Assembly (NCBI GenBank): GCA_040235515.1
Contig: JBECKX010000048.1
Coordinates: 1 to 17,847, forward strand
Direction: 5' to 3'
DNA from: Candidatus Zixiibacteriota bacterium
GTDB taxonomy: Bacteria > Zixibacteria > MSB-5A5 > CAIYYT01
DNA length: 17,847 bases
Positions 1,078-17,816 of the stretch are shown piece after piece (within the stretch, counting starts at the first letter, position 1; each line of letters opens with the position of its first letter). Both the position numbers and the translations under genes were made by a program. Below the pieces are notes generated by a model. The model ran no database searches. It was not told where the DNA came from and saw only the letters and a program-made list of their open reading frames with translations.

Positions 1078-1491
1078 ATGGGTCTTGAATTCATCACACG
1101 CATAATTCGAACTACCGCGATGGTCGCATTATTAGCGGCTTTGGCGGTATCTGTCTATTATGACTGGAATTTTGCGCTCGGAATGTTGGTGGGAACTCTC
1201 TGGGGACTGACCAACCTCTTCTTGATGAAACTGCTGATCAGGGAGGTCATTTCTCCCCGGAAAACCCGTATGAACCAGGCCGTAGTGCTGATGCTGGTGA
1301 AATTCCCGTTGCTCTATGTCGGCGGTTATCTGATTCTGGCCTGGGGGTTCTTCTCAGCCTATTCGTTGCTGGCAGGATTCTCGCTCATGTTTGCAGTTAC
1401 TCTCTTAAAGGTCCTGGGCAGAGTGGTGATGGGCATGGATGTGCCCGGCTTAACGCAATTGACGCGTAACCAGGCGGAGGGAACCAATTGA
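1078..1491 (+). CDS. atpI: ATP synthase protein I (AtpI/UncI)
   Basis: 137 aa, about 4 TM helices, directly upstream of atpB with TTGA stop/start overlap. Confidence 0.75.
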   Translation: MGLEFITRIIRTTAMVALLAALAVSVYYDWNFALGMLVGTLWGLTNLFLMKLLIREVISPRKTRMNQAVVLMLVKFPLLYVGGYLILAWGFFSAYSLLAGFSLMFAVTLLKVLGRVVMGMDVPGLTQLTRNQAEGTN

Positions 1492-2426
1492 TTCTCGATA
1501 AGCTGCTGATCCCATTTGTTTCACAGACTGACGCGCATGGTAGCGAAGCCGCTCACTCCGTTGCGGACACTCTGGCAGATACCCTGAGCCACGTCGGCCA
1601 CGTTGCCGGCCAGGCGGCGGGTCATGTCGCCGAGCATGCCGCAGAACATGGTGGAGAGCACGGCGGTTCGCACGAACTTCCGAACATCATTACAGTCCTG
1701 TATAAAGCGTTCGGCGAGACGTTTTCGTCGTTGCACCACTGGGAGAACATCATCTTCGCGTTCATCGCACTGATCTTCCTTTGCGTTGTGGCGATGGTGG
1801 TCTACCGCAAGCGCGAAATGATTCCCGGTCCGCTGCAGAACTTCGTCGAGCTGATCGTGGAAGGGCTCTACAATTTCTTCCACAGTATGCTCGGGGATCA
1901 TGCCAAGAAGTACACACCGTTCCTCGGAACGCTGTTTCTCTATATTCTGGTGATGAACTGGATGGGTATCATACCCTTCCTCAAGGCTCCGACCTCCGCC
2001 GCGGTGATTCCATTCTCGCTGGCGATCGTTGTGTTCATTTATTCACAAAGTGTCGGGTTTAAGCATCTCGGTGTGATCGGCTGGCTGAACCATCTGGCGG
2101 GTGAGCCGAAAGGGGTCATCGGCTGGGCACTGGTGCCGTTGATGATTCCGATCCACCTGATCGGCGAGATCGCCAAGCCGGTTTCACTGGCATTCCGTCT
2201 CTTTGGAAACATCACCGGTGAGGATATTCTCGTCGCTGCTTTCGCGATGCTCGGAATCCTGGCGCTTTCGTTCGCCGGACCTTCACCGGTTGGACTCCCG
2301 CTGCAATTGCCGTTCTACTTCCTCGGCCTGTTGATGTCGACGATCCAGGCGCTCGTGTTTGCGTCGCTGGCGGCAATCTATATCGCTTTGATGCTTCCCC
2401 ACGAACACGAGGGTGAGGGACACTAG
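1488..2426 (+). CDS. atpB: F0 subunit a with His-rich N-terminal extension
   Basis: 'PGPLQNFVE', 'KPVSLAFRLFGNI' (essential Arg), 'IQALVF'. SD GGAGG 1476-1480 and TTG start. Confidence 0.97.
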   Translation: MILDKLLIPFVSQTDAHGSEAAHSVADTLADTLSHVGHVAGQAAGHVAEHAAEHGGEHGGSHELPNIITVLYKAFGETFSSLHHWENIIFAFIALIFLCVVAMVVYRKREMIPGPLQNFVELIVEGLYNFFHSMLGDHAKKYTPFLGTLFLYILVMNWMGIIPFLKAPTSAAVIPFSLAIVVFIYSQSVGFKHLGVIGWLNHLAGEPKGVIGWALVPLMIPIHLIGEIAKPVSLAFRLFGNITGEDILVAAFAMLGILALSFAGPSPVGLPLQLPFYFLGLLMSTIQALVFASLAAIYIALMLPHEHEGEGH

Positions 2427-2496
2427 TCGAGAGAACTGATGAATATGAATAGAATTAACTTAATCATAATTACTAACAGGTAGTCAGGAGGAAATC

Positions 2497-2730
2497 ATGG
2501 ATTTCACATTTGCCCTAGCACTATCTCTTCCGATCGCAATCGGTCTTGCAGCTATCGGTTCCGGTTTTGGTCTCGGTCGCGCTGTCGGTCAGGCGATGGA
2601 AGCGATGGGTCGTCAGCCGGAAGCTGCTGGCAAGATTCAGACCGCTATGATCATCGGCGCCGCGTTCATCGAGGCTCTGACGATCTACGCCTTCGTGGCA
2701 TTCTTCCTTCTTCAGGGAAAAATCCAGTAG
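2497..2730 (+). CDS. atpE: F0 subunit c (H+-type)
   Basis: GxGxGxG helix, RQPE loop, 'FIEALTIY' carboxylate. SD AGGAGG 2486-2491. Confidence 0.98.
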
Positions 2731-2771
2731 GCAGCGCGAGCGAATCGAAGAATAGGATTCGGTAAAATCTG

Positions 2772-2811
2772 CGGCGGGCGGCTTTCCAGCACGCTGAATC
2801 TCCGCCCGCCG
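2772..2811 (+). promoter_or_regulatory. GC-rich stem-loop between atpE and atpF
   Basis: Perfect 10-bp inverted repeat CGGCGGGCGG (2772-2781) / CCGCCCGCCG (2802-2811), no U-tract. Confidence 0.7.
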
Positions 2812-2845
2812 ATACGACGAACCTGTTGGTGAGGAAAACAGTACC

Positions 2846-3355
2846 TTGCTTGAGCAAATACTAGATCAACTGAAGATCGAGATCCCGCAGCTGATTACCC
2901 ACATCATCGGCTTTCTTGTCGCGCTCTGGATTCTCAAGAAGTACGCCTGGAAGCCGTTGCTGGCTCTCCTTGAAGAGCGCCGCGAAAAGATCAAAAGCCG
3001 CTTCGATGAGATCGACGCGAAAATCGCCGATGCCGATCAGCTTAGGTCCCAGTACGAAACCAAGCTGAAAGAGATCGATGATGAGGCGCGCCGGAAGATC
3101 AACGAAGCGATAGCCGAGGGTGAGAAGATCGCCGGTAAGATCAAGGAAGATGCCCGTGCCGAGGCACGCGGAATCATGGAGCGCCAGAAGGCGGAGCTTG
3201 ATCAGGATTACGCCAAAGCGCGCATTCAGTTGAAGGAAGAAGTCATTGCGATGACAATGACTGCAACAGAGAGAATTATCAAGGAACGCCTCGATGAAGC
3301 CAAGCACCGCGATTTGATCGGTCGCTTCATCGATGAGGTAGAACAAGCCAGATAA
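2846..3355 (+). CDS. atpF: F0 subunit b
   Basis: Single N-terminal TM, 'LKKYAWKPLLALLEERREKI', long coiled coil. TTG start. Confidence 0.95.
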   Translation: MLEQILDQLKIEIPQLITHIIGFLVALWILKKYAWKPLLALLEERREKIKSRFDEIDAKIADADQLRSQYETKLKEIDDEARRKINEAIAEGEKIAGKIKEDARAEARGIMERQKAELDQDYAKARIQLKEEVIAMTMTATERIIKERLDEAKHRDLIGRFIDEVEQAR

Positions 3356-3365
3356 TCTGGCTCAA

Positions 3366-3430
3366 TGAGCTGTGGCGAATGAATGGGTGCCCCACCGCTT
3401 GCGGTGGGAGACCTGATCAGGATCGGCTCA
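3366..3430 (+). promoter_or_regulatory. Structured atpF-atpH intergenic element
   Basis: Hairpin CCCACCGC-TT-GCGGTGGG (3391-3408), enclosed by TGAGCTG (3366-3372) / CGGCTCA (3424-3430). Confidence 0.6.
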
Positions 3431-3445
3431 GGAGAATATGATACC

Positions 3446-3994
3446 TTGGAAGCAACACAAGTAGCACATCGTTACGCCAGCGGTCTGTTTGAGCTGACTC
3501 AGGAGAAGAACGTCTCCGAGTCTGTACACGAGGACCTTTCAACGATCGCCGCTCTCCTCAAAGAGGATCGAACGCTGCTGAACTTTCTGGCCGCGCCGCA
3601 GCTGCTGGAGTCGGACAAAGTTGCCGTCGTCGAGAAGGTATTCAAGGATAAGGTGCAGACCTACCTCTATTCCTTCCTGCAACTCCTGGTACAGAAACAC
3701 CGCACCGACTTTCTGGTCGAAATCGCCCAGGAATATGAAAAGCTATACAATCAGAGCCGTGGCCTGATCGCCACGCGCCTGATTACCGCCGTGCCCCTGA
3801 CCGACAGCGAGCGGGCACAGATTTCCGCGAAACTGAACAGCCTTACCAAGATGACGGTAACCCTCGAACCCGAGGTTGACCCCGCCATTATCGGTGGCGC
3901 GATCGCGATTGTTGGAGATAAGATCATCGACCGGTCCGTCAGACACGACCTGCGCCAATTGCGCGAACAACTGATGGATATCAAGGTCAATTGA
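3446..3994 (+). CDS. atpH: F1 subunit delta (start re-called to TTG 3446; ORF track gives 3383)
   Basis: 'VAHRYASGLF' and 'VDPAIIGG...IIDRSV'. SD AGGAG 3430-3434. The 3383 extension runs through the hairpin and is not delta-like. Confidence 0.93.
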   Translation: MEATQVAHRYASGLFELTQEKNVSESVHEDLSTIAALLKEDRTLLNFLAAPQLLESDKVAVVEKVFKDKVQTYLYSFLQLLVQKHRTDFLVEIAQEYEKLYNQSRGLIATRLITAVPLTDSERAQISAKLNSLTKMTVTLEPEVDPAIIGGAIAIVGDKIIDRSVRHDLRQLREQLMDIKVN

Positions 3995-4046
3995 TCACTC
4001 CTGAATGAGAAGAATATTGTTTTGGATAGATGGGAGAAGTTGATCG

Positions 4047-5576
4047 ATGGCTCTGAAACCTGAAGAAGTCAGCTCCATAATCAAGCAGCAGATTGCCGGC
4101 TACGAGACCAAGCTCGAGATGGAGTCGGTAGGAACCGTGCTGCAGGTGGGCGACGGTATCGCCCGCGTCTGGGGTTTGCAGGACGCCATGATGGCGGAGC
4201 TGGTACAGTTCCCCAATGATGTTACAGGCGTAATCCTGAACCTCGAAGAAGATAACGTCGGTGTCGCCATCATGGGCGACGACCGCAAGATCGAAGAGGG
4301 TGACGAGGTTCGCCGTACGGGCCGAATCGCTTCGGTACCGGTCGGTGAGGCCATGATCGGGCGCGTCGTCAATCCGCTCGGCGAGCCGGTTGACGGTAAA
4401 GGACCGATCGCTTCAACCGGATTTCGTGATATCGAGTCACCGGCGCCGAACGTGGTTCAGCGTCAACCCGTGAGCCAGCCGCTCATGACCGGGCTGAAAG
4501 CTATCGACTCAATGATCCCGATCGGTCGCGGTCAGCGCGAGCTGATCATTGGTGACCGTCAGACCGGTAAGACCGCTATCGCCATCGATACGATCATCAA
4601 TCAGAAAGACACGGATGTTATCTGTATTTACGTTGCCGTAGGTCAGAAGCAGTCCACCGTGGCGCAGGTCGTGGCGACGCTCGAGCAGTATGGCGCGATG
4701 GAGTATACTATCGTCGTAACTGCTCCCGCGAACTCACCGGCGCCCCTGCAGTACTTCGCACCCTACGCCGGTGTGACGATGGGTGAGGAGTTCATGTACA
4801 AGGGCAAGCATGTCCTGTGCGTGTACGATGACCTCTCCAAGCACGCCGCTGCCTATCGCCAGTTGTCGCTGCTGCTTCGTCGCCCTCCGGGCCGTGAAGC
4901 TTACCCCGGTGACGTCTTCTATCTCCACTCACGCTTGCTGGAGAGAGCCGCGAAACTCTCCGATGACCTTGGCGGCGGTTCACTCACCGCGCTCCCGATC
5001 ATCGAGACACAGGCGGGTGACGTATCAGCCTATATCCCGACTAACGTGATTTCGATCACCGACGGTCAGATCTTCCTTGAAGGTGACCTCTTCTTCGCCG
5101 GTACCCGGCCCGCCATTAACGTGGGTATCTCGGTATCGCGTGTGGGAGGTAACGCTCAGACGAAGGCCATGAAGAAAGTTGCGGGCCGCCTGCGACTCGA
5201 CCTCGCGCAGTATCGTTCGCTGCAGGCATTCGCGCAGTTCGGCTCTGACCTCGACAAAGAAACTCAGCGCCAGCTCACGCGTGGTTCGCGTACCGCGGAA
5301 GTGCTCAAGCAGGGCCAGTATCAACCGATGCCGCTGGAGCGCCAGGTCGCGATTATCTGGGCTGCGGTCAACGGCTATCTCGATTCGCTGCCGCTGGAAT
5401 CGATCAAGGATTTCGAGGTCGGTTTCTATCCATTCATCGAGAAACAATTCCCGGACATCTTCCACAAGATCCGTACTTCCAAGCTTCTCGAGGATGACAC
5501 CGCAGCGACACTTAAGAAGGCAGTAGAGCAATACAAGGCGGAGTTTGAGAAGAAACATTCAGGAGCTGCCGCGTAG
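4047..5576 (+). CDS. atpA: F1 subunit alpha
   Basis: Walker A GDRQTGKT, '[24 protein letters not shown]'. Confidence 0.99.
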
Positions 5577-5593
5577 CCGGGTTGATGAATTAG

Positions 5594-6460
5594 ATGGCAA
5601 CACTTCGAGACATTAAGAAGCGCATTCGCGCGGTCAAGAGCACCAAACAGATCACCAAGGCGATGGAGATGGTTGCTGCGGCACGGTTACGCCGGGCCGA
5701 GCAGGAAGCTGTGCAATCACGCCCTTATGCCGACAAGATGCGCTTGATCCTGAAACAGATTTCCGCCGCCGCCGCAACTCTGGACCATCCCTTCTTCGAG
5801 CAGCGTGAAGTCAAACATCAGACGGTCGTACTCTTTACCGGCGACCGCGGCTTGTGTGGATCCTATAATTCCAATTTGATCCGTAGAACGACACAGATAT
5901 TGAAAGCCGAAACCGAAGTGCCGATCGACCTGGTTCTGGTCGGTAAGAAGGGTGAGGATTTCTTCAAGCGCCGCAGTTGGCCGATCGCTCGAGTGTTCAA
6001 GGGTCTGCAGGGGAAGATGGATATCGACCTCGTGCGTGGCATGACCGACTACGTCATCGACCGCTTCATTTCCGGTGAGACCGACAAAGTGCAATTGATC
6101 TACGCCAAGTTCATCACCAAGTCTACGCATCGTATCACCGTAGCGGATTTTCTGCCGGTTTCACCGCCGGAAACCACGGAGGATACCAAGACTTCGAACA
6201 AGCAATATATCTTCGAGCCGGATCCGGCGCAGATTTTCGATTCACTGATGCCGGCTTATGCGCGAACGATGATGCAATCGGCAACTGCGGACGCGCTGGC
6301 TTCGGAGCACGCGGCCCGCATGATGGCGATGGGCCAGGCGACCAAGAACGCCGACGAGATGGTTGACTCATTGACCCTCCAGTACAACAAGGCGCGTCAG
6401 TCGGTGATCACCAAGGAACTTCTTGAAATCGTCTCCGGTGCGGAAGCACTTAACGGATAA
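5594..6460 (+). CDS. atpG: F1 subunit gamma
   Basis: 'QITKAMEMVAAA', 'DRGLCG', 'YNKARQSVITKELLEIVSGAEAL'. Confidence 0.99.
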   Translation: MATLRDIKKRIRAVKSTKQITKAMEMVAAARLRRAEQEAVQSRPYADKMRLILKQISAAAATLDHPFFEQREVKHQTVVLFTGDRGLCGSYNSNLIRRTTQILKAETEVPIDLVLVGKKGEDFFKRRSWPIARVFKGLQGKMDIDLVRGMTDYVIDRFISGETDKVQLIYAKFITKSTHRITVADFLPVSPPETTEDTKTSNKQYIFEPDPAQIFDSLMPAYARTMMQSATADALASEHAARMMAMGQATKNADEMVDSLTLQYNKARQSVITKELLEIVSGAEALNG

Positions 6461-6494
6461 GTAGTTTGAGCAGAATACCAGATTCGAATAATAG

Positions 6495-7934
<1,440 letters not shown>

Positions 7935-7939
7935 GGGTT

Positions 7940-8356
7940 TTGGCAGCGCCGTTCCAACTTGCCGTGGTCTCGCCTGAACGTATCCTGTTCGAGGAAGAGA
8001 TAACTTCACTCGTTGTCCCGGGTGGTGAGGGCTACCTCGGTATCCTGGCCCACCATGCGCCGATCATCACTACCCTGAAGGTAGGGGAGATCAAATTCCG
8101 TACGCCGGACAACAAGGAAGTCTTTATGGCGACCAGCGGTGGCTTTATGGAGGTTTCCGACAACAAGGCGACTATCCTGGTTGATACCGCTGAATTCCTC
8201 GATGAGATCGACCTTGGTCGTGCGCAGGATGAGCTAAAGCGTGCAGAGAATCTCCTCAATCTCGACCTGAGCAGCAGTGACAGGGAACTGGCGATGCACT
8301 CCCGCGAGAAGGCTAAGAACCGACTGGCCATCATCAAAAAGCATGGACAGAACTAG
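7940..8356 (+). CDS. atpC: F1 subunit epsilon
   Basis: 'VVSPER', 'GYLGILAHHAP', 'GGFMEV', 'IDLGRA'. TTG start. Confidence 0.96.
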   Translation: MAAPFQLAVVSPERILFEEEITSLVVPGGEGYLGILAHHAPIITTLKVGEIKFRTPDNKEVFMATSGGFMEVSDNKATILVDTAEFLDEIDLGRAQDELKRAENLLNLDLSSSDRELAMHSREKAKNRLAIIKKHGQN

Positions 8357-9343: not shown

Positions 9344-10510
9344 GTGAAGAAAATCTCGGTACTCGGTGCCACCGGCTCGATCGGCACCAGCCTCTTTGAT
9401 CTTGTTCGCAAGAATCGAGAGCGCTACAAACTCGAGCTGATCTCCTGCGGTTCAAGCGTGGAGAAGCTGGCTCAACTGGCAGAGGAGTTCTCAGTTCCTG
9501 CGGTTTATGTCGCGGACGAGACGCTCGCAGATGCCCCTTTCCCGGACTGCGTCAAACATCGCTATTTCGGCGCCGAGCAACTGGAGCCTGCGCTCGCCGG
9601 CGCTGAACCCGACCTGGTCGTGAATGCCATCGTCGGTGCTGCGGGGCTACAGGCGTCATACTTCACTCTCGAACGTGGCATAACCCTGGCGCTGGCCAAC
9701 AAAGAGTCGCTCGTTGCAGGTGGGGAATTGCTCACCTCCCTGAGCAAACGCAACGGCGCGGCGATCCTCCCGATCGATTCGGAGCACTCTGCTTTGCTGC
9801 AATGCTCACTCGCGGGCAGAACTGCGGAAATCGAGAAGCTGATACTGACGGCATCGGGGGGACCCTTCCGCAACAGGAGCGCCGAGAGCCTTGCCGATGT
9901 AACTGTCGCCGAGGCGCTTCGTCACCCCAACTGGTCGATGGGGGCCAAGATTACAATCGACTCCGCGACGATGATGAACAAGGGATTGGAAGTCATCGAG
10001 GCGCATTTTCTGTTCGATCTGCCGGCTGAACGAATCGATGTGGTGATCCACCCGCAATCGATCGTCCATTCGATGGTACAGTTCCAGGATGGCGCCACCA
10101 TAGCACAGCTCTCGCCGCCGGACATGCGCCTGCCGATAGCATACGCGCTCGAGTACCCCGAACGAATAGTCACGGATTTGCCGCGACTCGATCTCTCGAA
10201 GGCATTTACCCTCGAATTTGAGCCGCCCGATTTCGTTAAATTCCCGACGCTGCGGCTGGCGTATGAGGCGCTCAAACAGCGTGGCATGGCTCCACTGCGT
10301 CTAAATGCGGCAAATGAAGTCGCGGTTGCCGCTTTTCTTGCGGAAAAGATTAAATTTACTGACATTCCGACGATCATTGAGGGTGTAGTCAGGAACGATT
10401 CATCCTCTCAGGGTGATCCCCGGTCGCTTGCGGCGCTCCTGCAGGCAGACAAAGAAGCCCGATTGGAAGCTCAGGAAATCGTTCGAAACGGAACCTTACA
10501 GCAGGCATGA
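9344..10510 (+). CDS. dxr: 1-deoxy-D-xylulose 5-phosphate reductoisomerase
   Basis: GATGSIG, LANKESL, PIDSEHSA, HPNWSMGAKITIDSATMMNKGLEVIEA. Confidence 0.98.
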   Translation: MKKISVLGATGSIGTSLFDLVRKNRERYKLELISCGSSVEKLAQLAEEFSVPAVYVADETLADAPFPDCVKHRYFGAEQLEPALAGAEPDLVVNAIVGAAGLQASYFTLERGITLALANKESLVAGGELLTSLSKRNGAAILPIDSEHSALLQCSLAGRTAEIEKLILTASGGPFRNRSAESLADVTVAEALRHPNWSMGAKITIDSATMMNKGLEVIEAHFLFDLPAERIDVVIHPQSIVHSMVQFQDGATIAQLSPPDMRLPIAYALEYPERIVTDLPRLDLSKAFTLEFEPPDFVKFPTLRLAYEALKQRGMAPLRLNAANEVAVAAFLAEKIKFTDIPTIIEGVVRNDSSSQGDPRSLAALLQADKEARLEAQEIVRNGTLQQA

Positions 10511-10526
10511 CGTTAAATAAATCGGC

Positions 10527-11597
10527 ATGATAACAGTTCTCGCATTCATATTCGTCCTCGGGCTGCTGGTATTCGTGCATGAACTGGGGCACTTCGCGGT
10601 TGCCAAGTGGTCCGGAATTCGTGTCGAAACCTTTTCGCTCGGTTTTCCCCCGAAAATGATCGGTTTCCGCAAGGGTGATACCGAATATTGTATCTCCTGG
10701 ATACCGCTCGGCGGGTACGTCAAGATGTCGGGCGAGAAACCTGACGACGAGGATATCGAAGGTAAACCCTGGGAGTTCATGTCGAAACCGGTGTGGAAAC
10801 GCGCCCTCGTGATCTTTGCCGGCCCGGCGATGAATTACATTCTTGCGATCGCTATCCTCTTCGGCATCTACTATTTCCAGGGCGAGCCTGTTGCGGTCGA
10901 GGACAAAGCCGCTATCGGTGAGGTTGTCGCCGATCACCCGGCGGGCAAGGCCGGCTTGATGAGCGGAGACGTAGTCGTGGCGATTGATGACGAGCCGATC
11001 GGCACCTTCGAGGACCTCTACACCAAAGTCAACGGCGCACCCGGCGAGACTCTGAACTTCACCTGGCTGCGCGGCAGCGATACGCTCTCGGCGGCACTGG
11101 CCGTCAGCACCGACACGGTAATGAATATGCAGGGTGACCCCGAGGTTGTCGGCCGCATCGGTGTCGGTCGTCTGATCGAGTATCGCGACATGAGTTTCGG
11201 CGAGGCCGTGGTTGGCGGATTCGATATGGCCAACTTTTATGTCGTGATGATCTTCAAATTCCTCAAGAACGTGATCACCGGAGAAGCCTCTTCCAAACTG
11301 ATTGGTGGCCCGATCTTTATCGCACAGGCGGCAGGGGAAGCTGCCAAACAGGGGTTCGTTTCGGTATTGATCCTGGCTGCAATACTCTCGGTCAACCTCT
11401 GTGTCGTCAACCTGGCGCCCATTCCGGTGCTCGACGGCGGGCAACTGCTCTTCCTCGGAATAGAAAAACTGAAAGGCAGTCCGGTTTCGTTGCGGGGCCG
11501 CGCCATCGCCCAACAGATTGGCCTGGTGTTCCTGATCCTGCTTATCATCTTCGTCACCAGCAATGACATCATGAGGATCAATCTCTTCGGTTGGTAG
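10527..11597 (+). CDS. rseP: RIP metalloprotease RseP (M50, single PDZ)
   Basis: HELGH, 'IPLGGYVKM', 'AGPAMN', PDZ-like segment, 'NLAPIPVLDGG'. Follows dxr as is usual. Confidence 0.96.
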   Translation: MITVLAFIFVLGLLVFVHELGHFAVAKWSGIRVETFSLGFPPKMIGFRKGDTEYCISWIPLGGYVKMSGEKPDDEDIEGKPWEFMSKPVWKRALVIFAGPAMNYILAIAILFGIYYFQGEPVAVEDKAAIGEVVADHPAGKAGLMSGDVVVAIDDEPIGTFEDLYTKVNGAPGETLNFTWLRGSDTLSAALAVSTDTVMNMQGDPEVVGRIGVGRLIEYRDMSFGEAVVGGFDMANFYVVMIFKFLKNVITGEASSKLIGGPIFIAQAAGEAAKQGFVSVLILAAILSVNLCVVNLAPIPVLDGGQLLFLGIEKLKGSPVSLRGRAIAQQIGLVFLILLIIFVTSNDIMRINLFGW

Positions 11598-11627
11598 TGC
11601 CGACTCGACCGGTGCAAAAAATTTTGT

Positions 11628-11656
11628 TTGTAAAATTAGGCATAACTAATTATATA
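11628..11656 (+). promoter_or_regulatory. Putative promoter of mntR-tro operon
   Basis: TTGTAA (11628-11633), 17 nt, TATATA (11651-11656), in a very AT-rich island. ATG lies 7 nt after the -10. Confidence 0.55.
11634..11651. promoter_or_regulatory. DtxR-family (SirR/MntR-like) operator
   Basis: Palindrome AATTAG-GCATAA-CTAATT. Core TTAGGCATAACTAA resembles the staphylococcal SirR/MntR box TTAGGTTAACCTAA. It lies directly upstream of a DtxR-family gene. Confidence 0.75.
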
Positions 11657-11663
11657 AATAGAT

Positions 11664-12341
11664 ATGACGAATAAATCTCAATCGGTCTCAGCCGAGGATT
11701 ACCTCAAGGCGATCTACAGGCTGAGCCACGCCAGCGGCGTGCATGCACCAACCAAGCGGATCGCCGAAGAACTGGCGGTTACGGCGCCTTCCGTCACCGG
11801 CATGCTGAAGAAACTCGAATCTCGCGGGCTGGTTCATTACAGCCCCTATACGGGCGCGACCCTCTCCCGCAAGGGGCACGCACGGGCGATGAAGGTGTTG
11901 CGCCGTCACCGCCTGGTCGAGCTGTTTCTGCAGAAGTGTCTGAATATGAGCTGGGATGAGGTGCATGATGAAGCTGAAGTGTTGGAGCATGCGCTCTCGG
12001 ACAAGCTGGAACGGAGAATCGCCGATTGGCTGGGTGACCCCAGCTTTGACCCGCATGGCGCCCCGATCCCGGACGAGTCCGGGCGGATCGTCGAACGTCA
12101 GCTGGTTGCGCTCACCGAGATTGAGGCGGGTTGCACCGCTGTTGTTGCGGAAGTCCGGGGCAACGACGCGACGATGTTGTCGTATTTCAAGGACCATGGA
12201 GTCTTACCCAACCGCCGAATCACGCTTCTCGACAGGGGAGCATACGGTGGCTCGCTCAAACTCCGAATCTCACGCAAAACTCGATATGTCGGTCGTGACG
12301 CGGCCGCAAACGTAATGGTAGAGGTCATCGATGAAAGTTAG
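11664..12341 (+). CDS. mntR: DtxR/MntR-family metal-dependent repressor with C-terminal FeoA/SH3-like domain
   Basis: 'EDYLKAIY', HTH 'APSVTGMLKKL', 'RRHRLVELFL', 'VHDEAEVLEH', 'DPHGAPIP'. Confidence 0.93.
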   Translation: MTNKSQSVSAEDYLKAIYRLSHASGVHAPTKRIAEELAVTAPSVTGMLKKLESRGLVHYSPYTGATLSRKGHARAMKVLRRHRLVELFLQKCLNMSWDEVHDEAEVLEHALSDKLERRIADWLGDPSFDPHGAPIPDESGRIVERQLVALTEIEAGCTAVVAEVRGNDATMLSYFKDHGVLPNRRITLLDRGAYGGSLKLRISRKTRYVGRDAAANVMVEVIDES

Positions 12342-13233
12342 AATATTCCTTTGTGCCGCGACGATCCTGCTCACCACTGCACTCTCAGGGAGTGTGATGG
12401 CACGAGCTTCAGACGACAAACCTGTCGCCGTCGCAACCACCACCATGATTTCGGATCTCGTCCGGCAGGTTGGCGCGGATCGCATCGAGGTGCATGGCAT
12501 CCTCTCGCCCGGTGCAGATCCACACACCTATAAGCCGGTTCCGGGAGACGCGATCGCCATCGCCCAGTCAGACATCGTGTTCCGCAATGGTCTCTACCTT
12601 GAGGGTTGGATGAACAAGCTGGTGGAAAACGCCGGTGGTGAACGACCCGTGATAACCGTCAGCGAGGGAGTAGAGGCGTTAGCTGATCCGGCAAAGTCTG
12701 GTCATCCCGATCCCCATATCTGGTTCTCCGTGCCATTCTGGAAGATCGCCACCGACAACGTCGCGAAGGCGCTGGCGGAGTTTGATCCGGTCGGCGCTGA
12801 GGTCTACCTCGCCAATGCAGAAAGATACAAGATGAGTCTCGACTCACTCCATGCCTGGGCCAGGACGGAGATGGAGAAAATCCCTGAGAAGCACCGCTAC
12901 CTTGTCACCTCGCATGATGCCTTCAACTACTTCGGTCACGAGTACAACATGACAGTCATCGGCGTACAGGGAATCTCCACCGAGTCGCAGGCCAGCAGTC
13001 AGGATGTGGCCGCCATCATCAAGTTCATCAAGGCTAAGAATGTACCCGCGATTTTCGTCGAAACTTCGGTGAACCCGAAGTTGATCGAGGAAATCTCTCG
13101 CCAATCGAACGCCCGAATTGGTGGAACGCTCTACGGCGACTCGACCGGGCCGGCAGGCAGCGGGGCGGAGACCTATATCGGGATGCTCTCGGCCAACGTC
13201 AGGACAATCGTGAAAGCTCTGGGTGGAAAATGA
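12331..13233 (+). CDS. troA: Mn/Zn/Fe ABC transporter substrate-binding protein (cluster A-I, TroA-like)
   Basis: Sec-type signal peptide. Ligand motifs DPHTY, DPHIW, SHDAF, YGDS (His3-Asp). Confidence 0.92.
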   Translation: MKVRIFLCAATILLTTALSGSVMARASDDKPVAVATTTMISDLVRQVGADRIEVHGILSPGADPHTYKPVPGDAIAIAQSDIVFRNGLYLEGWMNKLVENAGGERPVITVSEGVEALADPAKSGHPDPHIWFSVPFWKIATDNVAKALAEFDPVGAEVYLANAERYKMSLDSLHAWARTEMEKIPEKHRYLVTSHDAFNYFGHEYNMTVIGVQGISTESQASSQDVAAIIKFIKAKNVPAIFVETSVNPKLIEEISRQSNARIGGTLYGDSTGPAGSGAETYIGMLSANVRTIVKALGGK

Positions 13234-14006
13234 CACAAGCACCTCCTATTGAAATCCACGATCTCACCATTTCATACCATAAGCGCCCGGTGCTCTGGGG
13301 TGTCGATGTCGACATACCGGAGAAGGCGCTCGTGGGTATCATCGGCCCCAACGGTGCCGGCAAGTCGACCCTGATCAAGGGTGTCATGGGCATGCTGCCG
13401 TTGTCATCAGGTTACGTGAAGATCTTCGGCGAGCCGCTCAAACGCCGCCGCCGCGATATCGCCTACGTGCCACAGCGCGAGGCTGTCGACTGGGACTTTC
13501 CGGTCACCGCGTATGATGTCGCACTCATGGGGCGCTACGGCCACCTCGGGCTGCTGCAACGGCCCTCGAAATCGGATCGCAAGATTGCAGCAGAAGCCCT
13601 CGAGAAAGTCGGTATGTCGGCTTACCGTGACCGCCAGATCGGGAACCTCTCCGGAGGTCAACAGCAACGCGTTTTCCTGGCACGGGCACTGGCGCAGCAG
13701 GCACAGGTCTACTTAATGGATGAGCCGTTCGTCGGTGTCGATGCAGCGACGGAAAGTGTGATCATTGAACTGTTGCGCGACCTGCGCCGGCAGGGCAAAA
13801 CGCTCGTGGTGGTCAACCATGACCTGCAGGCAGCGAAGGAGTACTTCGATTACCTGCTCCTGCTGAACATGCGTAAGGTGGCATTCGGGCCGACAAAGGA
13901 AGTTTTTACCAATGAGATCCTGCAGAAGACCTACGGTGGCAAATTGACGATCCTCTCCGATGCCGCGGAAGCTACCCGGGAGCATGAAGGTGTACCGAAG
14001 CATTAA
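13230..14006 (+). CDS. troB: Mn/Zn/Fe ABC transporter ATPase (TroB/MntB-like)
   Basis: GPNGAGKS, 'YVPQREAVDWDFP', LSGGQQQR, 'MDEPF'. ATGA overlap with troA. Confidence 0.95.
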   Translation: MTQAPPIEIHDLTISYHKRPVLWGVDVDIPEKALVGIIGPNGAGKSTLIKGVMGMLPLSSGYVKIFGEPLKRRRRDIAYVPQREAVDWDFPVTAYDVALMGRYGHLGLLQRPSKSDRKIAAEALEKVGMSAYRDRQIGNLSGGQQQRVFLARALAQQAQVYLMDEPFVGVDAATESVIIELLRDLRRQGKTLVVVNHDLQAAKEYFDYLLLLNMRKVAFGPTKEVFTNEILQKTYGGKLTILSDAAEATREHEGVPKH

Positions 14007-15396
14007 ACGCTATCTGCTATTTACCGCTGTAGTGGCGCTCACTACAGCCGCCCCTGCCTGGGCCGCACGAATATCCGACCTGCAGGAGACTTCGGTCTGG
14101 ACGCAGATTGCCGAATATTTCTCCTTCAGTTCGCCGATCGCCGTCCAGACCCTCATCGGCTGCTCTGCGCTCGGTCTTCTGGGTGGATTGCTGGGGTGCT
14201 TCCTTGTCCTGAGGCGAATTTCACTCGTTGGCGATGCACTGGGCCACGCGATCCTCCCCGGTATCGGTTTCTCGTTCATGATCATCGGAGCCAAATCGAC
14301 ACTGCCTCTGCTGGCCGGTGCGATCGTTGCCGGCGTACTCTACAGCCTTGTGCTCGGGTTCGTCTCGCGGCAGCGCAGAGTCAGACCAGATTCTGCACTT
14401 GGTTTGACTTTCACCGCCTTCTTCGGATTGGGGATTGTCCTGCTCAGCTACATTCAAAATTCACCCACAGGCAGTCAGGCCGGTCTCGACAAATTTTTGT
14501 TCGGGCAAGCCGCGGCGATCTCGATGGTCGACATCAAGGTTAGCATCATCTTGCTTGTCATCACCGCGCTCGCGATAGTGGCGCTCTTCAAGCAACTCCA
14601 GGTCTTCTCTTTCGATGCCACCTTTGCCAGCTCGATCGGCATCAACACCGCACTCTACCACTACCTGATGATGGTGCTCTTCACCCTGACCATCGTTATC
14701 TCAGTTCAAGCAGTAGGCGTAGTGCTTGTGGTGGCATTGCTGATCATCCCGCCCACGACAGCCCATTTGCTGGTGGATAGATTGCGCTCGATGTTGATTC
14801 TCTCCGGGTTCATCGGATTGCTCTCCGGCGCGATTGGCAGCCTCTTCTCATACCTCTATTCCGGCATCCCGACCGGGCCGATGGTGGTGCTGGCGTCAGC
14901 TTCCATCTTTGCGTTCGCGCTGCTGTTCGCACCGACGAGCGGTGCCGTTCCGAAGCTGCTGCGCAAGCGGCAACGTCGGCGTCGCACAGAATTGGAGAAT
15001 CTGCTCAAGTCGTTGCTTGAGTTCAACCGTCACCGGAACGTCGAGGATTCCACTCCGATTGCTCTCGACGACTACCTGCGCTTCAGCGAGTCCGATCCTG
15101 ACTGGACATCGAGACAAATCAAGCGAGCGCAACGCGCAAAGCTGCTGTTGCCTGGTGACAAGGGAGACACGCTGGTGCTCACCGATGCCGCCCTCAATTC
15201 TGCGCGGCGTATACTCAGAAACCATATCCTCTGGGAACTCTACCTCGATCAATACACCGACATCGCAGCAGATCACGTACACTTTGATGCCGAGCGGATC
15301 GAGCATGTGCTCACCCCGGACATCATTTCACGCCTGGAGAGCATCCTCGCCGGCAGGACGATCGGCAAGACCGATCCGAGCAGGGGTAACGCATGA
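13984..15396 (+). CDS. troC: ABC-3 metal permease (TroC-like) with N-terminal signal-like extension and C-terminal DtxR-like domain; start ATG 13984 or GTG 13990
   Basis: 'GDALGHAILPG', 'GLDKFLFG', 'VGVVLVVALLIIP'. Tail 'RNHILWELYL...HVHFDAERIEH'. GGGAG at 13978-13982 fits GTG 13990 best. Confidence 0.9.
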   Translation: MKVYRSIKRYLLFTAVVALTTAAPAWAARISDLQETSVWTQIAEYFSFSSPIAVQTLIGCSALGLLGGLLGCFLVLRRISLVGDALGHAILPGIGFSFMIIGAKSTLPLLAGAIVAGVLYSLVLGFVSRQRRVRPDSALGLTFTAFFGLGIVLLSYIQNSPTGSQAGLDKFLFGQAAAISMVDIKVSIILLVITALAIVALFKQLQVFSFDATFASSIGINTALYHYLMMVLFTLTIVISVQAVGVVLVVALLIIPPTTAHLLVDRLRSMLILSGFIGLLSGAIGSLFSYLYSGIPTGPMVVLASASIFAFALLFAPTSGAVPKLLRKRQRRRRTELENLLKSLLEFNRHRNVEDSTPIALDDYLRFSESDPDWTSRQIKRAQRAKLLLPGDKGDTLVLTDAALNSARRILRNHILWELYLDQYTDIAADHVHFDAERIEHVLTPDIISRLESILAGRTIGKTDPSRGNA

Positions 15397-16673
15397 GCTT
15401 CCACGATCTTTTCATCGCACCGCTGCAATTCGAGTGGATGTTACGCGGACTACTGATCGCGATATTCCTCAATGTCTCCCTCGGAATAATCGGGTCGTTT
15501 CTTGTGCTGCGGCGCATGGCCCTGATGGGGGACGCCGTCTCCCACGCAGTGTTGCCCGGTATTGTGGTGGCGTTTCTGATTTCAAATTCGCGCGCCTCGC
15601 TGCCGCTTCTGATCGGAGCCACTGGAGTCGGATTCGCGACAACGTTCCTGATCAATGGCATCAAGCTGAGCAGCAAGGTGAAAGAGGATGCCGCAATGGG
15701 TATCGTCTTCACCTCGATGTTCGCGCTCGGTGTCGTGCTACTCAATTCGTTCGCGTCGCATGTTGATCTCGACCCCGACTGCGTGCTGTATGGAGATCTG
15801 CTGGGTGTCCCGAGCACGACGGTGTGGGTGATGGCTGTCGTAACACTGGCTGTCGTCGCCGGCGTCATACTCTTCTACAGACAACTCCAGGTGACCGCCT
15901 TCGATGGCTTGTTTGCTGACGGAGTCGGAATCTCATCGAACTGGACTCACTATATCTTCATGGGTGTCCTGGCGGTCATACTCGTCATCGCCTTCGAGGC
16001 GGTAGGCTCGATTCTGGTCGTTGCCATGCTGATTGCTCCCGGCGCCACGGCATATCTCTGGACGGACCGCCTACCTCCCATGCTGACCGGTTCCGCCATC
16101 CTGGGAATCATTGCAGGGGTGCTGGGTCTCTACATCTCGGTCTGGCTCAATTGCTCGACCGCCGGCGCGATGGTCTGCGTCTCGTTTCTACTCTTCCTGA
16201 TCTCGCTGATCGCTTCACCCAAGCATGGCGTGGTAGCGCGCTGGTGGCGGCGGCGAAAGCTTCGTCGCAGGATTCTGGCGGAGAACCTCCTCAAGGAACT
16301 GGTGCGACTCAACGCGCGCGAGGTGGCTGTCTCGTTCGAGAGGTTGATCGAACTCACCCGGCTGCCGGTGCGGCGATTGCAGAAGGGAATCATGCGGCTT
16401 CGACAACGCGGGCTGATCGATCGACCTGAGCCGGAGTCTGTGCGACTCACGCCGGATGGGGAAGTCGAAGGGATGCGAATTCTCCGCTATCATCGTCTGT
16501 GGGAAGCTTTCCTCAGTTCAGAGATCGAGCTGCCTGAGGATCATCTTCACCGTGATGCGGAAGAGATGGAGCACCTGCTCACACCGGAGATGGAAGCTCA
16601 GCTTGCGGAGCTGTTGTCAGATCCTGACAAGGATCCGCACGGCAGCCCAATTCCTCCCTCATCCTCGAACTAA
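15393..16673 (+). CDS. troD: ABC-3 metal permease (TroD-like) with C-terminal DtxR-like wHTH + dimerisation domain
   Basis: 'GDAVSHAVLPG', 'HVDLDPDCVLYG', 'VGSILVVAMLIAP'. Tail 'RYHRLWEAFL...HLHRDAEEMEH...DPHGSPIP'. ATGA overlap with troC. Confidence 0.92.
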   Translation: MSFHDLFIAPLQFEWMLRGLLIAIFLNVSLGIIGSFLVLRRMALMGDAVSHAVLPGIVVAFLISNSRASLPLLIGATGVGFATTFLINGIKLSSKVKEDAAMGIVFTSMFALGVVLLNSFASHVDLDPDCVLYGDLLGVPSTTVWVMAVVTLAVVAGVILFYRQLQVTAFDGLFADGVGISSNWTHYIFMGVLAVILVIAFEAVGSILVVAMLIAPGATAYLWTDRLPPMLTGSAILGIIAGVLGLYISVWLNCSTAGAMVCVSFLLFLISLIASPKHGVVARWWRRRKLRRRILAENLLKELVRLNAREVAVSFERLIELTRLPVRRLQKGIMRLRQRGLIDRPEPESVRLTPDGEVEGMRILRYHRLWEAFLSSEIELPEDHLHRDAEEMEHLLTPEMEAQLAELLSDPDKDPHGSPIPPSSSN

Positions 16674-16694: not shown

Positions 16695-17816
16695 CTACTC
16701 TTCTGAGTTCGTTGCGGTGGAGTCCTCCGCCGTGGAGTCTGAGGCCGCACGGTAGTCAGGCTGAGAGAGAGCGTACTTGACGCGGTAGTTGCTGTCACCC
16801 GCCGATGGCAACTGCGTCAGGGATCCCAGCACGACCGGGTTGACGGTGGAAAAGCGCTTGATCGGATCGAAGTCACCGAGGAAAAGCAGTCCTGCCTCGG
16901 CGGATGTAACGATGAAAATCGGGAAACTGGTTGTGATATGCTCTCCGCGAGTCGCGAGCGGATGCTTACCGATGACCTGAAAATCGAGTGCGGTCAGCCC
17001 GTCACGCAGGATCATGAAACTGAGCGTATCCGTTAAGAAACGATAGTCCGGATTGACACCCACGCGATTACCCCACGACTCTGGCATCGAAATCACGCGC
17101 ACATTGGTTGAGTGCTCCACGACGAACTGCACTTCCTGGTAGAGATTCCGCTGACACTCGAGATTGACAATCATCAGGCAAGTGTCCCCCTTCTGTATCG
17201 GAGTCGGGAATTCGAAGCGGGCTGAGAAATCGCGGTTCGAAGGTTGATTCTTTAGCTCTCTGATCTTCGGAAACTCGAGTTGAAGGTTCTCGGCGGCCCG
17301 GAAGGGGTGGGGGGGTACCGTTGCCGCGCCACACTCTGTCGAAGTACCCGAGCAGATCGTTTTGCCATCCTCGTCGATCAACAGCATCAATCTCCCCATA
17401 GTCTGCCAATCCCGTTCGATCAGGCGCGTAAACAGAATCTCGAAGCCACCGACGTATTCTGGTGTAAAAGTAACCTCAAACTCCCTGGTCATCCCGGAAT
17501 CGATAGGTGTCTCCCAGGTCAGGCGTGCGGGCTCAAATTCTGGACCGCGTGGGCCGATGTTGACGAACTCGAATGTCTGAACCGTATCGAGATCTGCCAG
17601 CGCGGTGAGAGAGACTTTGATCCTGGCTGGTTTGCCATACTGCGGTTGCTGAACGAATTCCATCGAACCGGCGAATGGCTGCGACGGCTTAAAGCGATAG
17701 CGGCTGAAAAGTGGTTTAAAGACAGCCGGCTCCGCACTGACGATCTCCACGCTCAGCACAACTGCCGCAAGCGCCAGTATCACAGCGGATTTCAACAGGG
17801 ATTTTTTCGCAATCAT
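16695..17816 (-). CDS. Secreted hypothetical protein with two apparent beta-rich repeat domains
   Basis: 373-aa ORF with signal peptide (MIAKKSLLKSAVILALAAVVLSVEIVSA). GGAG occurs upstream on the minus strand. No family recognised. Confidence 0.75.
   Translation of the reverse strand: MIAKKSLLKSAVILALAAVVLSVEIVSAEPAVFKPLFSRYRFKPSQPFAGSMEFVQQPQYGKPARIKVSLTALADLDTVQTFEFVNIGPRGPEFEPARLTWETPIDSGMTREFEVTFTPEYVGGFEILFTRLIERDWQTMGRLMLLIDEDGKTICSGTSTECGAATVPPHPFRAAENLQLEFPKIRELKNQPSNRDFSARFEFPTPIQKGDTCLMIVNLECQRNLYQEVQFVVEHSTNVRVISMPESWGNRVGVNPDYRFLTDTLSFMILRDGLTALDFQVIGKHPLATRGEHITTSFPIFIVTSAEAGLLFLGDFDPIKRFSTVNPVVLGSLTQLPSAGDSNYRVKYALSQPDYRAASDSTAEDSTATNSEE

Follow-up and report, generated by a model that had tools for sequence, protein, structure and literature searches.

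The permease-DtxR fusions described so far have been read through one example, YtgC-YtgR of Chlamydia trachomatis (CT069/CTL0325, in ytgABCD), in which a TroC-type permease of a four-gene importer operon carries a C-terminal DtxR-like domain that is regarded as a repressor awaiting release. Single fusions of this kind have reportedly been found in 11 phyla (PMC5599777). Here we describe a 17,847-nucleotide stretch of DNA from a Candidatus Zixiibacteriota bacterium (contig JBECKX010000048.1 of assembly GCA_040235515.1; hereafter the window), where both permeases of a predicted ATP-binding cassette (ABC) metal importer, TroC and TroD, end in such a tail, and where the first gene of the operon encodes an intact stand-alone DtxR that has a predicted operator to itself. 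Each of the two permeases joins an ABC-3 membrane domain to a C-terminal DtxR-like domain and is thus a fusion of the YtgCR type. Moreover, the tail start (EHLLK/ENLLK) and the atypical helix region that follows it are shared with YtgCR in a published alignment, compared here as far as the point where the metal domain begins (PMC7755916, supplement file 1). The Chlamydia operon differs in having a single tailed permease and no such free DtxR at its head. Sequence comparison suggests that the conserved job of the tails is metal binding on the transporter itself.

The gene set resembles that of Treponema TroABCD-TroR, where a binding protein, an ATPase and a pair of non-identical permeases are reportedly likewise accompanied by a DtxR-like repressor, whose operator is 18 bp long (PMC2628430). 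The length of the Treponema permeases (TroC, 298–304 aa; TroD, 366–367 aa) leaves no room for a full tail, and the repressor gene, which comes first in the window operon, comes last in Treponema. A same-family precedent for a brake acting on the transporter is found in E. coli ZnuBC (PDB 9OKO-9OKR), also an ABC-3 system, where a cytoplasmic zinc-sensing domain reportedly locks the importer while Zur controls transcription separately (PMC12236471, a preprint). In ZnuBC, however, the sensor is described as a Cys/His motif at the C-terminus of the ZnuC ATPase rather than a permease-borne DtxR fold, and the ZnuB permease is homodimeric. MetNI and ModABC, where substrate-binding cytoplasmic domains are reported to dimerise and stop the cycle (PMC10710835), offer an analogy only, for their regulatory domains are ATPase-borne and of other folds. 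Further context came from PMC2628430, PMC8346216 and PMC4989314.

The five genes of the operon overlap or abut on the + strand (11664–16673) and encode, in order, the DtxR-family repressor, a metal-binding protein, TroB, TroC and TroD. The operon thus unites PF00950 permeases with an ABC ATPase and a binding protein of family PF01297, and the system is an ABC-3 (Tro/Mnt/Psa/Znu) importer. TroC (13960–15396, + strand) is 478 aa long from its first ATG, and the database gene call of 468 aa is consistent with a GTG start at 13990; its N-terminus (13990–14075) looks like a signal peptide that stops just before a conserved ARI motif, as it does in many C-type fusions. The ABC-3 domain of TroC spans aa 62–323 and is followed by Fe_dep_repr_C (PF02742) at aa 412–463 (47.2 bits, E 2e-12, cut-off 27). 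In TroD (426 aa, 15393–16673, + strand), ABC-3 covers aa 12–274 and Fe_dep_repr_C aa 353–421 (82 bits, E 3e-23). The Asp/His pair of the pore (PsaC D46/H50) is kept as D92/H96 in TroC and D47/H51 in TroD, and is invariant in both permease alignments.

The original prediction, made from the letters alone, had recognised a DtxR-fold tail on both permeases beside a stand-alone repressor, and the Pfam matches bear this out. The motifs on which it relied are all in frame: RKRQRRRR (14962–14985), ENLLK (14995–15009), RNHILWELYL (15217–15246) and VHFDAERIEH (15277–15306) in TroC; RWWRRRKLRRR (16239–16271), ENLLK (16281–16295), RYHRLWEAFL (16485–16514) and LHRDAEEMEH (16545–16574) in TroD, together with DPHGSPIP (16632–16655); and EDYLK (11694–11708), RRHRLVELFL and VHDEAEVLEH in the repressor. 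The DNA-binding family Fe_dep_repress (PF01325), which was also to be searched for, matches neither tail in Pfam, and yet a winged-helix fold is predicted in both. Each tail thus appears to consist of a basic helix running continuously into DtxR helix 1, a divergent winged helix and a metal/dimer domain: the TroC tail at 14944–15393 (+ strand; joined helix aa 329–358, PF02742 at 15193–15348) and the TroD tail at 16230–16670 (+ strand; joined helix aa 280–305, PF02742 at 16449–16655). The TroD tail has the complete DPHGSPIP end, whereas that of TroC closes on DPSRG and lacks the H-G-x-P-I-P end; identity to the free repressor is 21% for TroC and 32% for TroD.

AlphaFold2 models of TroD (predicted local distance difference test 93, predicted template modelling score 0.85) and TroC (88 and 0.82) show the basic stretch as a single helix entering DtxR helix 1, followed by the winged helix and then the dimer helices. 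The basic stretch earlier described as a polybasic linker is therefore present, but it is predicted to connect the membrane domain rigidly to the tail, as a helix and not as a loose tether. In a Foldseek search with the TroD model, the permease half superimposed on Streptococcus PsaC (7KYP) with a root-mean-square deviation of 2.3 Å over 278 columns, and the tail on Deinococcus DR2539 (8PVT) with 1.7 Å over 128 columns; among solved structures, PsaBC and DR2539 come nearest to the permease half and the tail, respectively. MntC of B. subtilis may have a comparable tail; a model of the B. subtilis MntB2CDA complex (predicted template modelling score 0.84) is listed in PMC11466899. No chain combining a permease with a tail occurred among 28 sequence matches to solved structures or among the Foldseek matches listed, and a search of the ESM Atlas returned Fe_dep_repr_C clusters only.

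What the tails have kept and what they have lost is best seen against the free repressors. In the following, positions are those of the free repressor, the comparison set comprises 45 double-tail operons (45 C and 45 D tails) and 40 free repressors, and ligand identities follow the parts of PMC4805248 that bear on them. H82, E108 and H109 are kept in 45/45 C tails and 45/45 D tails, and E86 in 43/45 and 45/45, respectively, so that the metal ligands are indeed conserved among homologues; the corresponding residues in the window are H422, E426, E448 and H449 of TroC and H367, E371, E393 and H394 of TroD. The recognition-helix and wing residues S43, M47 and G64, found in 31, 38 and 39 of the 40 free repressors, are unconserved in the tails, and Y62 (29/40 free repressors) falls in a gap in 89 of the 90 tails. 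A larger set of 402 tails repeats this pattern of ligands kept and DNA contacts lost. Similarly, PF02742 matches all of the 97 D-type and 89 C-type fusions, while PF01325 matches a single D-type protein (1/97, weakly, E 0.0055) and no C-type protein (0/89). In terms of DtxR/MntR proteins, then, the tails possess the metal/dimer domain with its His/Glu ligands and lack both a PF01325 match in the window and a conserved recognition helix. They also have features of their own, including a Trp at position 85 (89/90 tails) and a frequent Asp-His at 98–99; at position 101, Asp replaces His in 36/45 C tails, while all 45 D tails have His. The C and D tails thus carry distinct signatures, and a clamp made of the two tails is possible.

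Selection among the 7 closest operons is distributed in the same manner, although pS values of 0.6–0.8 are near saturation and make the ratios comparative only. The pN/pS of the metal/dimer domain is 0.22 in the C tail and 0.19 in the D tail, compared with 0.23 and 0.20 for the respective membrane cores; that of the winged helix is 0.54 and 0.67, compared with 0.32 in the free repressor. Invariant columns in the winged helix number 2/43 and 3/41 in the tails versus 14/39 in the free repressor. Judged by these comparisons, the metal/dimer domains of the tails are constrained like the membrane core and their winged helices are relaxed, and the tails likely bind cytoplasmic metal.

The free repressor, by comparison, appears complete. 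It is a DtxR/MntR/TroR-family protein of 225 aa (11664–12341, + strand) with a winged helix (PF01325, 71.6 bits), a metal/dimer domain (PF02742, 95.1 bits) and an FeoA domain (PF04023, 51.6 bits), its recognition helix is intact, and its best solved relative is 8PVT (E 8e-43), titled as the Mn-dependent repressor DR2539. Upstream of it lies a predicted DtxR/MntR-type operator (11634–11651, unstranded), an 18-bp imperfect palindrome of the form AATTAG-N6-CTAATT that the repressor would bind. The TTAG-N6-CTAA core begins 28 bp before the repressor ATG and recurs at the same offset in 11/11 of the closest loci; it lies within 90 bp in 6/9 more distant ones. The 18-bp palindrome has no other exact copy in the genome, which holds one further site with a single mismatch, and a scan of 11500–11760 for sigma-70 promoters and terminators found none. 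In 4/11 of the closest loci (L064–L067; G003, G013, G014, G017), an MntH/NRAMP gene stands behind this repressor and operator where the window has the ABC genes, and both rseP-dxr and the downstream gene of the window are found close by; in L064, an ORF resembling a universal stress protein follows the MntH/NRAMP gene. The operator is thus conserved also where there are no tails, and it belongs with the free repressor. Since MntH occupies the same locus in relatives, the cargo of the importer is likely Mn or Fe, with Mn(II) favoured. A general operator across divergent double-tail loci was considered and rejected, the strict pattern occurring in just 4/27 of them (shuffled mean, 0.16).

The separate DtxR thus likely controls transcription at the upstream operator, and the tails, which have lost the DNA-contact motif, are unlikely to be the repressor of the operon. 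The original prediction had argued from the presence of a dedicated repressor that the tails do something else. The intact repressor with its conserved operator, and tails that keep ligands and lose DNA contacts, fit that argument, which is nonetheless weakened by YtgR, a tail apparently of the same type that reportedly binds DNA.

A feature of the ATPase points to what the tails may do instead. TroB (258 aa, 13230–14006, + strand; PF00005) ends 24 residues past YGG, and its YGGKL is followed by LSDAAEATRE (aa 242–251; 13953–13982, + strand), a short motif that is predicted to be helical and through which TroB could contact the tails. In operons with at least one metal-binding tail generally, YGG-[KR]-L is followed by a motif like L-[SDT]-[EQ]-A-A-E-A-[VL]. 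A leave-one-out profile with a threshold of at least 4 bits, from which 9 undecidable rows were excluded, detected the motif in 85/88 operons with at least one metal-binding tail and in 0/22 operons without a metal domain; a hand rule (88/88 versus 1/21) had been fitted post hoc, and the profile was used in its place. In held-out loci, the respective counts were 22/23 and 0/4, with 2 undecidable, or 19/20 and 0/4 after three duplicates were dropped. The motif is absent from operons with winged-helix-only tails and from a plasmid operon of Brevibacillus in which the histidines of the tail are gone. It is present in the TroB of single-tail operons, which implies that two tails are not required. 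The possibility that it is a by-product of the troB/troC overlap was rejected (0/68). No substrate-binding regulatory domain of the MetNI, ModBC or ZnuBC type follows the ATPase domain in TroB, which has the short motif there. The motif that accompanies metal-binding tails is new here, and its co-occurrence with them is a lead towards coupling, not proof of it. In the portions covered by a literature search (including PMC11466899 and part of PMC11672702), neither double tails nor the TroB motif were described; two primary Chlamydia papers outside that search (Thompson 2012; Akers 2011) may mention double fusions.

We consider it slightly more probable than otherwise that the tails are metal sensors on the transporter that act through TroB and slow the pump. 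The importer would be a Tro/Mnt-type ABC system, likely for Mn(II), in which a DtxR-derived domain on each permease would bind cytoplasmic metal. Once loaded, the tail would slow the pump by way of the short C-terminal helix of TroB, adding fast feedback at the transporter to the slower repression exerted by the separate DtxR. The C and D tails may pair in double-tail systems, although one tail is apparently enough for coupling and the other would likely contribute a further site or a partner. We infer that the tails bind metal and touch TroB, that the effect is inhibitory, that Mn is the substrate and that C and D tails pair. A metal-dependent clamp of two tails had been proposed at the outset as a means of trans-inhibition; the co-occurrence of the TroB helix points to a link with the ATPase and so fits trans-inhibition, but the single-tail operons with the same helix (16 C-only and 5 D-only among 80 loci) suggest that two tails are not essential.

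Several observations weigh against this proposal. The 4-bit threshold for the TroB motif was chosen after the scores had been seen, the trait changes just 4 times on the TroB tree and thus yields 2–4 independent pairs (none of them opposite), and a sign test of the association between motif and tail, with 3–4 phylogenetically independent contrasts, is not significant (p of 0.5 or more). One held-out locus, L296, with a single permease gene whose tail has an FeoA-like extension, has a TroB without the motif. At the N-terminal site, both tails of the window have Asn where MntR has its ligand D8, and the DPHG histidine is missing from the TroC tail, which leaves affinity and metal uncertain; the selection ratios, as said, are comparative. 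Finally, the known trans-inhibition domains sit on the ATPase and not on the permease (PMC10710835), and Chlamydia YtgR, with the same atypical tail start, is reportedly cleaved and DNA-binding (PMC5599777, PMC6504234, PMC10239878).

Among the other explanations, one would keep the tails at work on the transporter without making them a fast brake: metal loading could govern assembly, stability or proteolytic turnover, or the tails could buffer metal and hand it off. The ligand conservation described above would be expected just as well, W85 and D98-H99 suggest a remodelled site or interface, the C and D signatures differ at position 101, and YtgC is reportedly proteolysed. What such a function would not explain is why the TroB motif tracks the tails, unless the motif is an assembly contact. 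Nor does the adjacent rseP help, since it lies beside the locus in its MntH form too and reflects plain synteny, and rseP as the protease releasing the tails was rejected on the same ground. We regard this explanation as unlikely, and as somewhat less likely still one modelled on YtgR, whereby one or both tails would be metal-dependent DNA-binding regulators, released by proteolysis or tethered, that use a non-canonical helix. That YtgR is reportedly cleaved from YtgC and represses the ytg and trpBA promoters (PMC5599777, PMC6504234, PMC10239878) speaks for it, as does the published YtgCR alignment (PMC7755916, supplement file 1), which has the same kind of tail without a canonical recognition motif. 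The winged-helix fold retained in the models and the rarity of the strict TTAG-N6-CTAA site in divergent double-tail loci are likewise compatible with it. However, constraint in both tails is weakest in the winged helix, the operator follows the free repressor rather than the tails, and the join between permease and tail is predicted as a continuous helix. Furthermore, 30/31 single-chain TroC-tail-TroD proteins have a hydrophobic segment after the tail, which would thereby be anchored at both ends, and a single cut would not release it.

The original prediction also raised a membrane dock for the repressor. In this view, the tails would sequester the free DtxR by forming heterodimers with it, which seems to us improbable. 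Tails and repressor do share a dimerisation fold, and a free repressor is present in at least 20/37 double-tail loci (14 by our own profile and 6 more by Pfam). Yet in a quick tree tails and free repressors form separate groups, with 39/40 free repressors standing apart behind a 98% branch, and they differ at W85/W97. Two repressor types, long and short, accompany tails in the same loci, and the same repressor persists where tails are absent. Our survey produced nothing in support of docking, and in 17/37 double-tail loci, some of them truncated, the retrieved DNA did not include a free DtxR.

The fusion in the window is not an artefact of assembly, for 7/13 genomes of the sister genus share the same five-gene layout. 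The source genome, rated 100% complete, has only three PF02742 matches (TroC, TroD and the free repressor), and a genome search found one Fur and no Nramp match. Within the source genome's class, both tails occur in 8/121 genomes, these being the source genome and the 7 of the sister genus; the single genome from the same genus gave no match. A metagenome scan examined the best 80 of 571 matches ranked by TroD likeness, a ranking that favours tailed proteins. Of these 80 loci, 37 had both tails, 7 had a TroD tail after a tail that was cut off, 16 had only a C tail, 5 only a D tail, 1 was a single chain with one tail, 5 had none and 9 were undecidable. When two further phyla were sampled for operons with a similar TroB, 2/8 and 11/21 of the new operons were double-tailed, and the sources of tailed D-type proteins include Planctomycetota, Poribacteria, Armatimonadetes and Eremiobacterota. 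Double tails are thus common in uncultured bacteria, also beside a free repressor, and the combination of double fusion and free repressor is not exceptional.

The family as a whole forms a gradient from winged-helix-only tails through one full tail and two full tails to single chains. Tails that stop after the winged helix, without a metal domain, occur in L068, L069, L071, L213, L215, L274–L276 and L290. A full-length TroC tail without the His/Glu ligand pattern, and with no adjacent repressor, is encoded on a Brevibacillus plasmid (L072; NZ_CP011075.1). The single-chain forms (P0016–P0045, P0243, P0245, P0273) are arranged as TroC-tail-TroD, TroC-TroD-tail or binding protein-permease-tail, the named TroC-tail-TroD members being from Phycisphaerales/Isosphaera. 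In other cases, the tail runs on into an FeoA-like domain (P0145 and P0154, both with PF04023 listed; P0244, P0246 and P0269; locus L296). A free-standing counterpart of the tails is found directly after the complete repressor in L060 (5096–6232, − strand) and L061 (1458–2507, + strand), namely a soluble paralogue of DtxR that has PF02742 and FeoA but not PF01325.

As for their history, C and D permeases form separate clades with a support of 100, and the tail state switches several times on the D tree. In a quick tree, the D tails of the source lineage cluster with C-type tails (95%), a hint that the second tail arose independently. On the same tree, we rejected the idea that the tails were copied recently from the repressor next to them.

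The TroA-like metal-binding protein (300 aa, 12331–13233, + strand; PF01297, 290.8 bits) contains DPHTY, DPHIW, SHDAF and YGDST, whose three His and one Asp would be the metal ligands, as in TroA/PsaA. The best NCBIfam matches of TroB are Mn/Fe ABC ATPases, with scores below the family cut-offs. Upstream lie an F0F1 ATP synthase cluster (1078–8356) and a dxr-rseP pair (9344–11597), both identified by translation (rseP through its Pfam M50 and PDZ matches); between 2426 and 2846, the expected place of the short subunit c gene, no ORF of at least 80 aa is listed. Downstream, an ORF of 373 aa (16695–17816, − strand) without a Pfam or NCBIfam match is kept beside the locus in 10/11 close loci at 35–38% identity.

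An operon that has two tails, an intact repressor and that repressor's own operator separates two jobs, transcriptional control and a function on the transporter. The architecture is common, and the surprise is limited to that extent. It is conceivable, although we advance it tentatively and think it rather less probable than not, that a transcription-factor sensor was rebuilt as a transporter brake, such that across many phyla the DtxR sites of TroC/TroD permeases signal through the C-terminal helix of TroB. Equally tentative is the corollary that permease-borne trans-inhibition of an ABC importer was the original function of the domain that in Chlamydia is called the repressor YtgR. Should coupling run through the TroB helix, post-translational control of Mn import could be tested precisely and cheaply, and there would be reason to re-examine YtgR while it is still attached to its permease.

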